Assembly: GCA_958423255.1 (NCBI GenBank)
Contig: CATZQR010000003.1
Span: 65,440 to 129,439, forward strand
DNA from: an uncultured Bacteroidales bacterium
GTDB lineage: Bacteria; Bacteroidota; Bacteroidia; Bacteroidales; Muribaculaceae
Length of the DNA: 64,000 nucleotides
Reading direction: 5' to 3'
Shown: positions 57,401-60,906 of the stretch, piece by piece
Numbering within the stretch: the first letter of the stretch is position 1
Layout: each line of letters opens with the position of its first letter
Position numbers and translations under genes: made by a program
Notes under the pieces: model-generated
What the model saw: the letters and a program-made list of their open reading frames with translations, nothing else
What the model was told of the DNA's origin: nothing
Database searches by the model: none

Positions 57401-60400
57401 TGACAAGTAAAGCGGCCGACGGCTCGCTCACACTGCAGATCAAGCTAATCGGCACCACACTCGACGGCTTCGCGATGACGGTTACCCCCGTGCCGGGCGT
57501 AGCGATCCACGTAGCCGATGTGGCGCTGACCGCCGCATCGGAAGTAGCTGCCACACGCGGCACCACCGACACCCCTGTAGGGCATGCCGTATTCTCTGTA
57601 GAGGGCAACAAGAATATCCTCTCGATAAGCGGAGTGAAGGCCAGCGTGGCCGGCTCCACTTCCATAGCCGACATAACCTCCGTAGGCGTGGCTTACACCT
57701 CCCGTCTTGACCGCTTCAACAGCACCTCGATGGTAGGCAAAGCCGCTCCCGCCGCCGATGGCACCGTGGAAATCACCTTCGACCAGCCCGTTGAAATCGA
57801 CGAGGCAGGCGACTACCACTTCTGGCTCACCGGCGACTTCACCGCGACAGCCGAACCCGGCAACATCGTGGAAATCGCCCTCACCGACGTGACCACCTCG
57901 GCAACCGAACCTGTAGAGATTGCCGAAGGCACCAAGGCGGCCCGTTCGCTCAAGGCCGGCATGGCCGGTTCCTACCGCATCGGCGCCTCCGACCAGGCCG
58001 ACTTCGCCACCTTCGCCCTCGCCACCGAGGCGCTGGAGGGCGGCATCCAGGGGTCGGTAATCTTCCTGGTGGAAAGCGGCACCTACGCCGAGAACATCGT
58101 GATTGAGAACGTGGAGGGCACCTCGCAGGAGAATCCTCTGATCTTTATCTCGCAGAGCGGCAACGCCGCCGACGTAGTTATCACCGGCAAGAGCTACGCC
58201 TCCTCGAACGACGACATGGTGCGCGTGGTCAACACCCCCTGGGTGGCCTTCCGCAACATTACGTTCGCCCCCACATCGAGCGGCTACGGCAACGCCATCC
58301 ACTTCCACAACTCCTCGCGCCACTGCACGGTGGAAAACTGCGTGATCACATCCGAAACGCTCAACAGCTCCACTGCCAAGTCAGGTACCAACCTGATCCG
58401 CACCTCGGCCATGTCGGTCGACGAGACCCCTGACAAGAACTACGAAAGCGTGGCCAACACCGAATGCGACTACCTGACCATCCGCAACAACACTCTTAGC
58501 GGCGGTTATATCTCGCTCTATCTCTCTGCCGCCGGATATGTCGGGATGCCCAAAGCCACGGGCATGCTCGTAGAGGGGAACACCATCTCCGAATACTGCT
58601 CGAAAGGCATATACCTGGCCGACCAGGCCGACTTCACCGTGAAGGGCAATACCGTCACGAAGACAGACCTCAACAAAGGCAGCATCTACGCCATGGACGT
58701 CTACCGCGCCGAAGGCGAATTCTCGATTGAAGGCAACAAGCTGAGCACCACCTTCGTAAACGGCGTGGGCGCGAGCGTGAGCACCTCCGTGATCTACATG
58801 CGCGGCACTTCCGGCCACGGCGGCCGCGACGCAGCCCACAAGGCCCGCATCGTGAACAACTCCATCGCCCTGCTCGGAGGCGCCCACTACACCAACTACG
58901 GCCTTTTCCTGGCCAACGCTGGCAGCACTGCCAACGCCTACGGCAACATGATAATCGCCCACAACAGCATCCTGGTGAAATCGGCAAGCCCGACCGCCCG
59001 CGGCGGCTATGCCCTCTTCATCAACCGCTCGAGCGAAGGGTGCGGACTCGAGGTACGCAACAACCTGCTCCAGGCCGTAAGCGCCTCGTCGCCCCTCAAC
59101 ATCTGGAACGACGCCGAACTGACGAATATCGCCTTCTCCGGCAACGCATTCTACGGCGGAAGCGGCAATGTAGACAACCAGTCGACTCCCCACACAATGG
59201 AGACCTACCGCGAGGCCTCGGGCGACCAGACCTCGGTATGGAAACAGGTTGAATTCCTAAGCGACAACGACCTTCGCCTCGCCGAGGCCGACGGCCTCGC
59301 CATGGACCGCGTCGACGGCGTCGATACCGACCTCGAAGGCACCGAACGCGGCACCACGACCACTGCCGGCGCCTACGAATTCAAGCAGATTGTCTCGGAG
59401 ACTCCGGTTATCGCCGAAGGCTATCCCAAGATGGTCAAGACCGCCGACACATCGGCAACAGTGGCCACCCGCTGGAGCGTCGGCGCTCAGGTTTACGCCA
59501 TGGCCGTGAAAGCCGATGCCGAAGCTCCCACAGCCGAACAGCTCAAGGCCCAGCGCCCCACTGCCTGCGAAGCCGACATGGAGATTACCACGACATTCAA
59601 TTTCCTCGACCAGCTCACGGCCTACCGCGCCTACTTCCTGGCCGTTGAACCCCTCGGCGGCGAGAGCGAAATCGCTACCGTCGATTTCACCACTCTCGAG
59701 ACCATCGAGGAGCTTACGGCAGAGATAATGTGGCAGGAAGAACCCTTCCAGGCCGGCGAACAGATTGAACTGTACGCCGTGGCCGAAGGGGGCAAAGAGC
59801 CTTACACCTACACCTGGAGCGACCAGACCGGCACCGTAGATTCCGACGCCGACATCTACTCGGAGGCCGCCACGCGCAGCCGCAGCTATACCCTCAAGGT
59901 GACATCGGCCGACGGCCAGACGGCCTACGCCAAGGCCAATGTGCCCGTCGTGACCCAGAACCTCGCCATCGCCACATTCGAAGACCTTCCCCTCGAGCCC
60001 GAGAGCAGCTGGATGATGGACGAACACGCCACGGAAGACACCTACACTGATGCCTTCTTCAGCGGCTCGATGCAGTTCGGCAACTTCCCGTTGGTTAACT
60101 GGAGCGCATGGAGCGGCTACGGCTTCGCCAACGAGACGTCGACGACTTTCACCGACTATAAGACAAGCCAGATGCGCAACTGCGTGGGCGGCGGAGCCGA
60201 AGGAACCACCAACTACGGTGTAGGCTACCTTTACGAAGGCACCAACGGAAGCATCGCCATCAATGTGCCCGAAACAGGCGTTGCCGTTCCCGGCATGTAT
60301 GTCACCAACTCCGCATGGACCATCGACTATATTCTCCACGGCTCGCAGGGCTTCGGCTCGGCATTCGCCGACGGCGACTATCTCGAGCTGGTGGTTGAGG

Positions 60401-60906
60401 GCATGCTCGGCACCACCTCGACCGGCAACGTCCGCGTAGCCCTGGCCGACTACCGCGCAGCAGCCGCCACGGCGGCCGAGGGAACGGAGACTGAGCCCTC
60501 GAAATTCCTCACCGAATGGAAATGGGTTGATCTCAGCGGTCTTGGCAACATCGACAAGCTGAAACTCTCGATTACCGGTTCGGCCAACCAGATCACTAAA
60601 GTGCCGAATTATGTGTGCATCGACCAGATTGGTGCCGCCGATCCCTCGGGCGTAGGAAGCGCCAAGTCCGACACCTTCGACGGTGGCATACGCATCCTGC
60701 TTCCCACCCCGCGCACTCTTACCGTGACCGGCGTCGACGGAGCCTACACCCTGCGTCTCTACTCGGTCGACGGCATCTGCCGCGACACTCATAAGCTTGA
60801 AGGAGCCTCGACGGTGAGCATCGACCGCCTCGCCCCGGGCACCTATGTGGCCGAAGTGACTACCGCCGACGGCGGCCGCCACACGGTCCGTATCCTCAAA
60901 AAGTAA
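54490..60906 (+). CDS. giant (2138 aa) multidomain T9SS cargo protein: N-terminal CUB-like repeats, central right-handed parallel beta-helix, C-terminal ~240-aa beta-rich domain, T9SS CTD
   Basis: The signal peptide is MKKLITSLLMLAAAAAWTSAWA. There are four or more CUB-like modules (YP.N.PYNYCGWV...; FYDAGGPDG...VYSG). The beta-helix has NxxxxGN-type rungs (IRNNTLSGG, VEGNTISEY, VKGNTVTKT, IVNNSIAL, VRNNLLQAV). The C-terminus GTYVAEVTTADGGRHTVRILKK is a T9SS tail. The in-frame upstream extension to 54196 runs over the riboswitch and would bury the signal peptide, so I rejected it. Confidence 0.85.
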   Translation: MKKLITSLLMLAAAAAWTSAWADPAEVTHPKKDKDSNPNAYYTVGDEGTIYHSMDYPKNAPYNYCGWVTFVPANEGDPLNIEFTEFTVTSTDQTGPFVYIYDDDTILKSKFTNYSDPAPEGYIAAITAENASAMVTSTTGKLAVLYAPKANKSGYTAVTGTYTAKVTSAPPTDMVFQEATLESAAGLISRGMTDVPLATITVKTKGSLNPLTLDALSLDLSALTASGLVSNLRIYDTAIDEANLLTTLADGATTLTASGVTLKGTSKFILAADASASGYGTIPAPTLSALTIGGTSYDADASALTALELSNAILMPDGGKHATFTIDADTKFYDAGGPDGNIPLNAEGTLTLVPATAGTIIKFDPASWKLFDTSSVGYNDIFRAYSGREVADDALIADLCAKGRILYSTAADGSMTIYFKSVQGNASSAKAGWEATLSAITPTDMTVGSITALTSQPAKPGAGDKVDNLLLFDVRAENTLNPLDLTALNFALPEGAKAATSITVSYLGSEADSKTSTPYGTAEIGADGTATVSGSLTLKEGSNIFAVAATVAGTANNGDIAGIRLTGITASGKTTPAEGVEATVEVENVCRLTEGEHSHTIYGPWQFTHTTASEYSSKYAASTSDHTVTFTPAEAGTVAQLTFKDFNVYYSATSYGTKAKFEVYSGTGANRTLLWSLTDPNKAAEGPGMKLRSTAADGSLTVVFNPNTSSSYYTANGWHATVEPFTDHAATVSAIEVAQASTDIVGPGTADAELIKFSVETEGTISPLTLNGINLTVKGKEALDKVKVYTTTDGTMANATLWGSAEMPAEGNALTVAPAEESALQPLPEAKTRFIIAADVKSVVDSDIAVDAAVSSLKFTDGSTYTVENGDPEGERLTKNIYILGADATQTVMVGSPIAFYDNGGPDGKSSPVECTVTFIPTDPEAKLVLDTQAFSIGGGKIHVFSGREVNEENRLGKATGYFTTTGPAELTSKAADGSLTLQIKLIGTTLDGFAMTVTPVPGVAIHVADVALTAASEVAATRGTTDTPVGHAVFSVEGNKNILSISGVKASVAGSTSIADITSVGVAYTSRLDRFNSTSMVGKAAPAADGTVEITFDQPVEIDEAGDYHFWLTGDFTATAEPGNIVEIALTDVTTSATEPVEIAEGTKAARSLKAGMAGSYRIGASDQADFATFALATEALEGGIQGSVIFLVESGTYAENIVIENVEGTSQENPLIFISQSGNAADVVITGKSYASSNDDMVRVVNTPWVAFRNITFAPTSSGYGNAIHFHNSSRHCTVENCVITSETLNSSTAKSGTNLIRTSAMSVDETPDKNYESVANTECDYLTIRNNTLSGGYISLYLSAAGYVGMPKATGMLVEGNTISEYCSKGIYLADQADFTVKGNTVTKTDLNKGSIYAMDVYRAEGEFSIEGNKLSTTFVNGVGASVSTSVIYMRGTSGHGGRDAAHKARIVNNSIALLGGAHYTNYGLFLANAGSTANAYGNMIIAHNSILVKSASPTARGGYALFINRSSEGCGLEVRNNLLQAVSASSPLNIWNDAELTNIAFSGNAFYGGSGNVDNQSTPHTMETYREASGDQTSVWKQVEFLSDNDLRLAEADGLAMDRVDGVDTDLEGTERGTTTTAGAYEFKQIVSETPVIAEGYPKMVKTADTSATVATRWSVGAQVYAMAVKADAEAPTAEQLKAQRPTACEADMEITTTFNFLDQLTAYRAYFLAVEPLGGESEIATVDFTTLETIEELTAEIMWQEEPFQAGEQIELYAVAEGGKEPYTYTWSDQTGTVDSDADIYSEAATRSRSYTLKVTSADGQTAYAKANVPVVTQNLAIATFEDLPLEPESSWMMDEHATEDTYTDAFFSGSMQFGNFPLVNWSAWSGYGFANETSTTFTDYKTSQMRNCVGGGAEGTTNYGVGYLYEGTNGSIAINVPETGVAVPGMYVTNSAWTIDYILHGSQGFGSAFADGDYLELVVEGMLGTTSTGNVRVALADYRAAAATAAEGTETEPSKFLTEWKWVDLSGLGNIDKLKLSITGSANQITKVPNYVCIDQIGAADPSGVGSAKSDTFDGGIRILLPTPRTLTVTGVDGAYTLRLYSVDGICRDTHKLEGASTVSIDRLAPGTYVAEVTTADGGRHTVRILKK

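Follow-up and report, generated by a model that had tools for sequence, protein, structure and literature searches.

A giant Bacteroidales protein with a type IX sorting domain carries a BtuJ-type DUF4465 domain predicted to bind corrinoids

Layout of the giant gene

We analyzed a 64,000-nucleotide (nt) stretch of DNA, here called the window, from an uncultured Bacteroidales bacterium of the Muribaculaceae (assembly GCA_958423255.1, contig CATZQR010000003.1, positions 65,440 to 129,439), in which a cobalamin riboswitch precedes the gene for a giant protein of 2,138 amino acids (aa). A reading of the letters alone, referred to here as the sequence-only reading, had singled out a domain near the C-terminus of this protein as a candidate corrinoid-binding module. 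Translation of window positions 59950-60690 on the + strand agrees with the sequence quoted in that reading, including NLAIATFEDLPLEPESSW, FGNFPLVNWSAWSGYGF, TNYGVGYLYEG and IDQIGAADPSG, and the whole domain region lies within a single open reading frame (ORF) of the ORF list, 54196-60906 (+). The riboswitch, the gene and the parts of its product are as follows, with the basis of each in parentheses.

53873-54190, + strand: cobalamin riboswitch aptamer, RF00174 (Rfam cmscan)
54191-54489, + strand: 5' leader, the presumed expression platform (read from the sequence)
54490-60906, + strand: coding sequence of the 2,138-aa protein, stop codon included (ORF list, translation, starts of homologues)
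54490-54555, + strand: Sec signal peptide (MKKLITSLLMLAAAAAWTSAWA), aa 1-22 (read from the sequence)
54556-57960, + strand: four CUB-like domains in tandem, each paired with a sialidase-N-terminal-like (BNR_assoc_N) beta-sandwich, aa 23-1157 (motif positions, AlphaFold/Foldseek, Pfam)
57961-59397, + strand: right-handed parallel beta-helix, aa 1158-1636 (Pfam and NCBIfam matches)
59398-59958, + strand: two small beta-sandwich spacers, aa 1637-1823 (weak Pfam Ig_3 and SprB matches)
within 59398-59958, + strand: Fn3-like spacer, aa 1637-1735 (label inferred)
within 59398-59958, + strand: PKD/Ig-like spacer with an EPYTYTW motif, aa 1736-1823
59959-60651, + strand: DUF4465/BtuJ-type augmented beta-jellyroll, aa 1824-2054, end approximate (PF14717, PDB, AlphaFold plus Foldseek)
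between the DUF4465 and sorting domains, + strand: linker of 12 residues, aa 2055-2066
60688-60903, + strand: type IX secretion system (T9SS) type A C-terminal sorting domain, aa 2067-2138 (TIGR04183)

The start codon was assigned to the Met of the signal peptide at 54490 (MKKLITSLLMLAAAAAWTSAWA), which is where full-length homologues of 2,050-2,300 aa start. The upstream ATG at 54196 was rejected as the start: it lies 5 nt past the aptamer and would add 98 residues without a signal peptide, and the homologues start at MKK. An identical protein in the database (P0019) is recorded as 2,202 aa, its start being called upstream of the signal-peptide Met. Since the signal peptide, as read from the sequence, has no lipobox cysteine, the protein is not a lipoprotein. 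At the other end, TIGR04183 matched aa 2072-2138 with 27.9 bits (cut-off 23), and PF18962 was found in many relatives of the protein; the window protein thus has both the N-terminal Sec signal and the C-terminal sorting domain that define T9SS type A cargo. On the opposite strand, a 557-aa ORF (59257-60930, - strand) runs antisense to the domain region; it has no family match, and coding on this strand was rejected in favor of a shadow ORF of a gene with 58% G+C.

The domain before the sorting domain belongs to the DUF4465/BtuJ family

The sequence-only reading had mentioned DUF4465 as a family that could not be confirmed by eye. A hidden Markov model search settled the point, with PF14717 (DUF4465) matching over model positions 2-176 of 176 with a score of 129.9 bits (cut-off 25; E 1.7e-37). 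In a sequence search of the PDB, the best match was 9HMU (D5EK51 DUF4465 with vitamin B12; E 1e-29), followed by 4JQR and 4E9K, and a profile of the domain with 18 relatives additionally recovered BtuJ1 (9FCT, 9QPM) and BtuJ2 (9I2L). We also built an AlphaFold model on the alignment of the domain with the 18 relatives. The model is discrete and mostly beta, with a mean predicted local distance difference test (pLDDT) score of 85.5 and a predicted template modeling score of 0.85, which bears out, for aa 1824-2054, the earlier description of a discrete beta-rich domain just before the T9SS sorting domain, which follows after the 12-residue linker.

The comparison of this model with known structures, a check that had been proposed along with the note, returned only DUF4465/BtuJ chains as the nine best Foldseek matches in the PDB (E 1.4e-20 to 4e-9, probability 1.00), and most of the DUF4465/BtuJ structures among them were solved with B12 bound. 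The best template modeling (TM) score of the domain model, obtained with 9HMU, was 0.76 when normalized on the query and 0.83 when normalized on the target. With the latter normalization, seven chains scored 0.62-0.83 (0.78-0.83 for 9HMU, BtuJ1 and 4JQR, 0.62 for 4E9K), and the two BtuJ2 chains scored about 0.5. The tenth match was a carbohydrate-binding module (CBM), with E 0.017 and TM scores of 0.23 (query) and 0.30 (target). Because the PF14717, PDB and AlphaFold/Foldseek results agree, membership in DUF4465 is secure by both sequence and fold. A CBM, which had been named as the kind of unrelated family that would argue against corrinoid binding, was also considered and rejected as the identity of the domain, since no CBM was matched in Pfam and the CBM fold matches are at noise level (E of at least 0.017, TM of at most 0.35).

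DUF4465 is the BtuJ family (PMC13398666, PMC13616437, bioRxiv 10.1101/2025.07.01.662609). In Bacteroides thetaiotaomicron, BtuJ1 (BT1491) and BtuJ2 (BT1957) are lipoproteins of the cell surface that belong to riboswitch-controlled btu loci and have a very high affinity for B12 (PMC13398666, PMC13616437, bioRxiv 10.1101/2025.07.01.662609), with a dissociation constant of about 1e-10 M for BtuJ1 (PMC13398666, PMC13616437). Binding of B12 was demonstrated for eight divergent DUF4465 proteins (PMC13398666), and D5EK51 was crystallized with B12. With this family and the fold match to BtuJ structures, the domain remains, as first proposed, a candidate corrinoid-binding module. The family is described as lipoproteins or proteins with periplasmic signals (PMC13398666), more than 70% of its members being lipoproteins. 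The window protein has the signal peptide expected of such an exported protein; its route differs, with a T9SS sorting domain and no lipobox.

The same reading had compared the domain with the C-terminal B12-binding domains of BtuH-type proteins. This comparison holds for the layout only, as BtuH2 likewise places Ig/PKD domains before a C-terminal B12 binder (PMC13616437), and it fails for the family, which is BtuJ and not BtuH. By BLASTP, the window protein aligned to a BtuH homologue of a related locus with an E value no better than 0.74, while that homologue matches 7BIZ at 2e-54; neither 7BIZ nor 8BLW was matched in PDB sequence or fold searches with the window protein, and a BtuH profile found nothing among 189 relatives. 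In addition, BtuH homologues are present as separate genes adjoining relatives of the giant protein. The globular B12 domain of BtuH (7BIZ) has been reported to lack recognizable structural homologues. That the domain is a BtuH-type B12-binding domain is therefore refuted at the level of sequence and fold, and we regard it as extremely improbable. The other known B12-binding module, the BtuG/BtuK propeller (PF16819, DUF5074), had no Pfam match in the window protein.

One of two hallmark contact residues is conserved

BtuJ1 has two conserved B12-contact tyrosines, Y245 in the HI loop (motif N/G-T-P-A-Y) and Y146 in the DE-loop helix (PMC13398666), and the HI-loop Tyr is retained in 97% of the DUF4465 family (PMC13398666). 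Both residues were located by counting along the alignment with 9FCT. Y245, the Tyr of NTPSY, aligns with Y2041 of the window protein (KVPNYVCID), and Y146, the Tyr of NTTY, aligns with W1943 (TNSAW). We then counted the residues at both positions in 77 aligned DUF4465 domains, which are the window's own and those of 76 relatives' sequences. Tyr occupies the HI-loop position in 74 domains. At the DE helix, 57 domains have Tyr, 13 have Trp and 7 have a different residue. The structure 4JQR from Bacteroides caccae has Trp at the DE-helix position, too. As judged from these alignments, one hallmark contact is kept and the other is a conservative aromatic change that recurs in the family, and this is the main caveat at the level of sequence.

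The loss of the DE-helix Tyr also raises the question whether the domain has kept the DUF4465 fold and lost high-affinity corrinoid binding, so as to act as a docking, hand-off or structural module; BtuK2 would be a parallel, as a paralogue of BtuK1 that does not bind. In line with this, the HI-loop motif of the window protein (KVPNY) departs from the N/G-T-P-A-Y consensus, and the Btu system does have non-binding paralogues (PMC13616437). However, the most conserved contact Tyr is present (Y2041), and the Trp at the DE helix, found in 13 of 77 domains and in 4JQR, looks like normal family variation. Moreover, all of the eight tested family members bind B12, with identities down to about 16% (PMC13398666, PMC13616437), and riboswitch control is retained throughout the family of the giant protein. 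We therefore consider a loss of binding to be unlikely.

A cobalamin riboswitch precedes the giant gene in nearly all loci

The upstream riboswitch reported in the sequence-only reading was recovered by Rfam as RF00174 at 53873-54190, with 54.6 bits against a gathering score of 31.5 (E 8e-11) and over the full model (1-189). The aptamer is unusually long, with 318 nt compared to the 189 positions of the model and with insertions of about 35 and 103 nt, and its score is below the scores of the aptamers of more distant orthologues (76-112 bits). About 300 nt separate the end of the aptamer from the start codon. This leader holds a 13-bp hairpin at 54386-54415 and an AT-rich stretch ahead of the ATG; a terminator scan of the leader gave no convincing intrinsic terminator on the + strand, where no T run follows the palindromic hairpin stem; it listed this stem on the - strand, with a T run. 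The nearest genome locus is from a metagenome-assembled genome, 'uncultured Porphyromonadaceae bacterium UMGS827' (L004), which has 95% protein identity and syntenic flanks. At about 94% DNA identity, this locus has about 178 extra nt in the 5' leader (9749-9928) at the place of window position 54410, and thus the presumed expression platform varies between near-identical genomes.

To see how general the riboswitch is, we used loci fetched from 80 species genomes, out of 165 species genomes matched in all. In a first set of 9 loci searched with Rfam, RF00174 preceded the giant gene in 8, the ninth having just 55 nt of upstream sequence, and in a further set it was upstream in 6 of 6 loci (76-112 bits); therefore, among loci with adequate upstream sequence, the riboswitch was present in the window and in 14 of 14 others. 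We also ran an nhmmer profile made from seven of the relatives' aptamers over all loci. Of the 80, 65 had a + strand match no more than 900 nt upstream of the giant gene, and in 13 more the match was 1.1-5 kb away, also upstream, and separated from the giant gene by other genes. An aptamer thus lies upstream in 78 of 80, and the last two loci contain no sequence ahead of the gene. Since both surveys place a riboswitch upstream, the link of this protein family to B12 sensing is close to universal.

Several loci contain extra cobalamin-riboswitch-like matches, which lie shortly after the giant gene or at other places in the locus:

L058, 13496-13639; L070, 16217-16338; L071, 16655-16803: extra riboswitch-like matches
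L023, 9678-9854 and 11685-11884: extra riboswitch-like matches
L028, 22006-22056 and 25245-25451, - strand: extra riboswitch-like matches

Given these matches, operons neighboring the giant gene may also be regulated by B12.

Some relatives of the giant gene occupy the btuJ position of btu loci

In the window, the giant gene stands alone, and it is followed by genes for a short-chain dehydrogenase and an RlmL-type methyltransferase. Among the relatives, a Prevotella-type locus (L065) has the order riboswitch, TonB-dependent receptor, DUF5074 (BtuG-like) protein, BtuH homologue and giant gene, with the BtuH homologue matching 7BIZ at E 2e-54. By size, ORFs matching those of L065 occur in the same order in L060, L074 and L075, and L078 has the same spacing between aptamer and gene. 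In six other loci (L053, L055, L057, L077, L081 and L083), just one ORF, of about 360-390 aa, separates the giant gene from the aptamer, and several of these ORFs share a PAPGQF motif with the BtuH homologue of L065. Where the aptamer is distant from the giant gene, the intervening genes were btu genes in the six loci checked. In locus 2 of B. thetaiotaomicron, BtuJ2 (BT1957) comes after BtuH2 (BT1956) (PMC13616437; bioRxiv 10.1101/2025.07.01.662609). The B-G-H-J order of these relatives is that of locus 2, and thus the giant gene occupies the btuJ position. The setting typical of DUF4465 proteins, a riboswitch-controlled btu locus, is accordingly represented by RF00174 in the window and by btuB-btuG-btuH upstream in some relatives.

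In L083, two DUF4465 genes are adjacent (9785-13315, 1,176 aa; 13351-20367, about 2,339 aa), with one riboswitch and a BtuH-like gene ahead of them. This pair looks like a tandem duplication or a scaffold split.

B12-binding modules are exchanged in a common scaffold

A word-indexed search with the full protein gave about 40 full-length relatives, which measure 2,040-2,570 aa and have identities as low as 24%; nearly all of these share the architecture of the window protein. The same search with the domain alone gave just 18 proteins, and the family became visible only with the full-length query and with exhaustive searching. When the N-terminal 1,200 aa were used for an exhaustive HMMER search, 322 cluster representatives (50% identity) were obtained, 152 of them at E values of 1e-30 or below. 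The scaffold was present in 165 species genomes, its clusters at 50% identity number at least 152, and its carriers include Muribaculaceae, Prevotellaceae, Paludibacteraceae, Dysgonomonas and others. Xylanibacter muris, Dysgonomonas sp. BGC7 and Bacteroidetes oral taxon 274 F0058 are culturable carriers. A protein identical to that of the window heads a cluster of 1,282 member sequences in the Logan assemblies.

The C-terminal parts of 189 proteins were classified with our own profiles. DUF4465 was found in 147, and 39 had no match to these profiles, being mostly fragments or distant beta-helix proteins. Two tandem DUF4465 domains are present in P0146, P0161, P0207 and the protein of locus L075 (9839-16849). 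In P0056, P0058 and P0122, DUF4465 is replaced by a complete DUF5074 propeller (1-353 of 353, E about 1e-105), and the 3,053-aa P0154 (L085 3421-12582) has the order DUF4465, DUF5074, DUF4465 and T9SS tail. These four paralogues are the only giants with PF16819, which is therefore rare among them. The best PDB match of the giants' propeller was 9S6C, the complex of BtuK1 with cyanocobalamin. Both the DUF5074 variant P0056 and the triple variant P0154 retain the riboswitch. Two unrelated B12-binding folds in one slot of the scaffold are independent evidence for selection of this slot for B12 binding. That the B12 module can be duplicated, and that a BtuK/BtuG-type propeller can take its place or accompany it, speaks for B12 capture as the selected function.

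These results also bear on whether the main job of the protein could be adhesion or the processing of glycans or proteins through its CUB, sialidase-N-like and beta-helix regions, with the jellyroll being a CBM and the B12 regulation incidental. A jellyroll is generally CBM-like, CBM4-2 and CBM16 appear low in the Foldseek list, and the N-terminal modules resemble CUB domains and the carbohydrate-binding domains of sialidases. In contrast, the noise-level CBM matches described above compare with E values of 1e-20 to 1e-9 for DUF4465 structures, relatives fill the slot with a second, unrelated B12-binding fold, and the riboswitch is upstream in every locus that has upstream sequence. We consider this explanation to be very unlikely.

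Some relatives differ at the end or in size. P0056 (aa 2069-2140) and P0058 (aa 2065-2127) have a weak match to DUF6383 (PF19910) instead of the usual Por_Secre_tail, and this ending may be a different C-terminal sorting signal. Four proteins of 406-422 aa (P0003-P0006) consist of a signal peptide, a PKD-like domain, DUF4465 and a T9SS-like tail; the PKD-like domain before DUF4465 is common to them and the window protein, and they look like the C-terminal fifth of the giant as a separate gene. One of them, P0003, is encoded at L084 8017-9285, just upstream of the giant gene and ahead of the giant's riboswitch.

Proposed role in corrinoid capture

We propose that aa 1824-2054 form the BtuJ-type corrinoid-binding domain of a T9SS-exported, riboswitch-controlled capture protein that hands its ligand to BtuG-BtuB, a reading that we consider to be probable; the prediction that the domain binds corrinoids and serves scavenging has much the same probability. 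In this mechanism, the riboswitch would shut the gene off when intracellular B12 is sufficient, and the protein would be made under B12 limitation. After Sec export, it would cross the outer membrane by the type IX secretion system. The sorting domain would then be removed, and the new C-terminus would be lipid-anchored as for other type A cargo, or the protein would be released. The DUF4465 pocket would capture extracellular cobamides and pass them to a BtuG-BtuB transporter encoded elsewhere in the genome. If the protein is anchored, the B12 domain would be about 12 residues from the anchor, adjacent to the membrane and near BtuG-BtuB, with the 1,800-residue part directed outward.

Several points weigh against this proposal. 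A carrier of 230 kDa is without precedent, the known BtuJ proteins being lipoproteins of about 25 kDa, and the N-terminal part of the giant carries no assigned role. The evidence for the giants consists of sequence, models and context, and binding by this protein and its giant relatives is predicted. Non-binding paralogues exist among Btu proteins, for example BtuK2 (PMC13616437), and the change of the DE-helix Tyr to W1943 keeps the aromatic ring and loses the hydroxyl. Finally, a tblastn search of the 64-kb window found no btuB, btuG or btuH, and the receiving transporter was thus not seen there; nor were genes of the T9SS machinery observed in these 64 kb.

Comparison with known systems

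BtuJ1 and BtuJ2 (9FCT, 9QPM, 9I2L) share with the window protein PF14717, the augmented beta-jellyroll, the HI-loop Tyr, a cobalamin riboswitch and a predicted extracellular location, and some relatives of the giant gene are placed after btuB-btuG-btuH as BtuJ2 is. However, both are single-domain proteins of about 25 kDa that are N-terminally lipid-anchored, whereas the domain studied here is the penultimate module of a 2,138-aa protein that has a Sec signal without lipobox, a T9SS sorting domain and a DE-helix Trp in place of Tyr. Their identity to the window domain is just about 15-21% in the Foldseek alignments. The closest solved structure is D5EK51 of Coraliomargarita akajimensis (9HMU with B12), with 33% identity and E 1e-29; it has the VPxY HI loop and the YLADYR strand in common with the window domain, but it comes from another phylum, stands alone as a protein of 27 kDa and carries Tyr at the position of W1943.

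BtuH2 (BT1956; 7BIZ) belongs to the same uptake system and also has Ig/PKD spacers followed by a C-terminal surface B12 binder, but its B12-binding fold is unrelated to the window domain and there is no sequence similarity. In addition, BtuH2 is a lipoprotein anchored at its N-terminus, with its binder distal to the membrane, whereas the binder of the window protein would be membrane-adjacent if the protein is C-terminally anchored. The seven-bladed DUF5074/PF16819 propellers BtuK1 (9S6C) and BtuG are B12-binding surface modules of the same system as well, and such a propeller is in or beside the DUF4465 slot of P0056, P0058, P0122 and P0154, whereas the window protein has no DUF5074 domain. 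With T9SS type A cargo (TIGR04183/PF18962), the window protein shares the Sec signal, the sorting domain and the build of a large multidomain surface protein that includes a beta-helix and Ig-like domains.

Both the domain family and what it does are already known, and NCBI labels several of the relatives 'DUF4465 domain-containing protein'. Searches of the literature on T9SS with cobalamin riboswitches and on BtuJ gave no T9SS cargo described as a B12 binder or as riboswitch-controlled, and a search of the literature on T9SS or giant DUF4465 proteins found nothing relevant. The giant multidomain form, the T9SS route, the breadth among Bacteroidales and the exchange of B12 modules appear to be undescribed in the searched literature. 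Competition for B12 and other cobamides shapes gut communities, and the surface capture machinery has so far been worked out almost only in B. thetaiotaomicron, as small lipoproteins. Here, the same binding domain is deployed differently, near the C-terminus of a protein that has about 230 kDa, a type IX signal and a B12 riboswitch. If the proposal is true, T9SS is connected with the scavenging of vitamins, and one may ask what the N-terminal part contributes; as culturable carriers exist, this question is open to testing.

The N-terminal 1,800 residues

Sequence searches of the N-terminal 1,100 aa (Pfam on pieces, PDB phmmer) found almost nothing, and self-BLAST of the protein detected no internal repeats because the four pairs are too diverged. 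The pairs of CUB and sialidase-N-like domains, which start at aa 23, 317, 593 and 885 with the last ending at aa 1157, were recognized by structure prediction only. The AlphaFold model of pair 2 (aa 317-592) has a pLDDT of 91.5, and its Foldseek matches were the CUB domains of neuropilin, C1r, MASP and TSG-6, with target-normalized TM scores of about 0.8, followed after the CUB part by the N-terminal beta-sandwich of GH33 sialidases (4fj6, 6myv, 4q6k). Pfam matched PF14873 at aa 1027-1137. The beta-helix region matched Beta_helix (PF13229, 33.2 bits), NosD (PF05048, 26.5 bits) and TIGR03804, all of which are generic matches, and the family alignment shows a conserved Asn ladder in this region.

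It is conceivable, though doubtful, that the N-terminal part is not a passive stalk but a device that captures or processes corrinoids that are not free, which would amount to T9SS-dependent B12 piracy. The CUB/sialidase-N-like pairs and the beta-helix would then bind, and perhaps degrade, haptocorrin, intrinsic factor or the surfaces of B12 producers, and the membrane-proximal BtuJ module, or the BtuK/G-type module of relatives, would take over the freed cofactor and deliver it to BtuG-BtuB. A parallel to such a device exists in animals, whose receptor for intrinsic factor-B12, cubilin, likewise consists of CUB domains.

Other features of the window and related loci

Directly upstream of the giant gene, the window has a 1,024-aa ORF (50381-53455, + strand) with no Pfam or NCBIfam match. 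The first half of this ORF has 86% DNA identity to L004, and window positions 51645-53842 have no blastn match in L004, with flanks that are 94-97% identical; from these comparisons, one half of the gene looks hypervariable. In L084, an orthologous locus with 45% identity, the upstream neighbor is instead the 422-aa DUF4465 gene described above. The Bacteroidetes small RNA family FopS (RF04319) was matched at L005 9304-9371 and L006 22827-22894 with about 59 bits (gathering score 56), and the match in L005 lies just upstream of the riboswitch. The sole other Rfam match in the window was a tRNA gene at 28695-28768 (RF00005, 69 bits).

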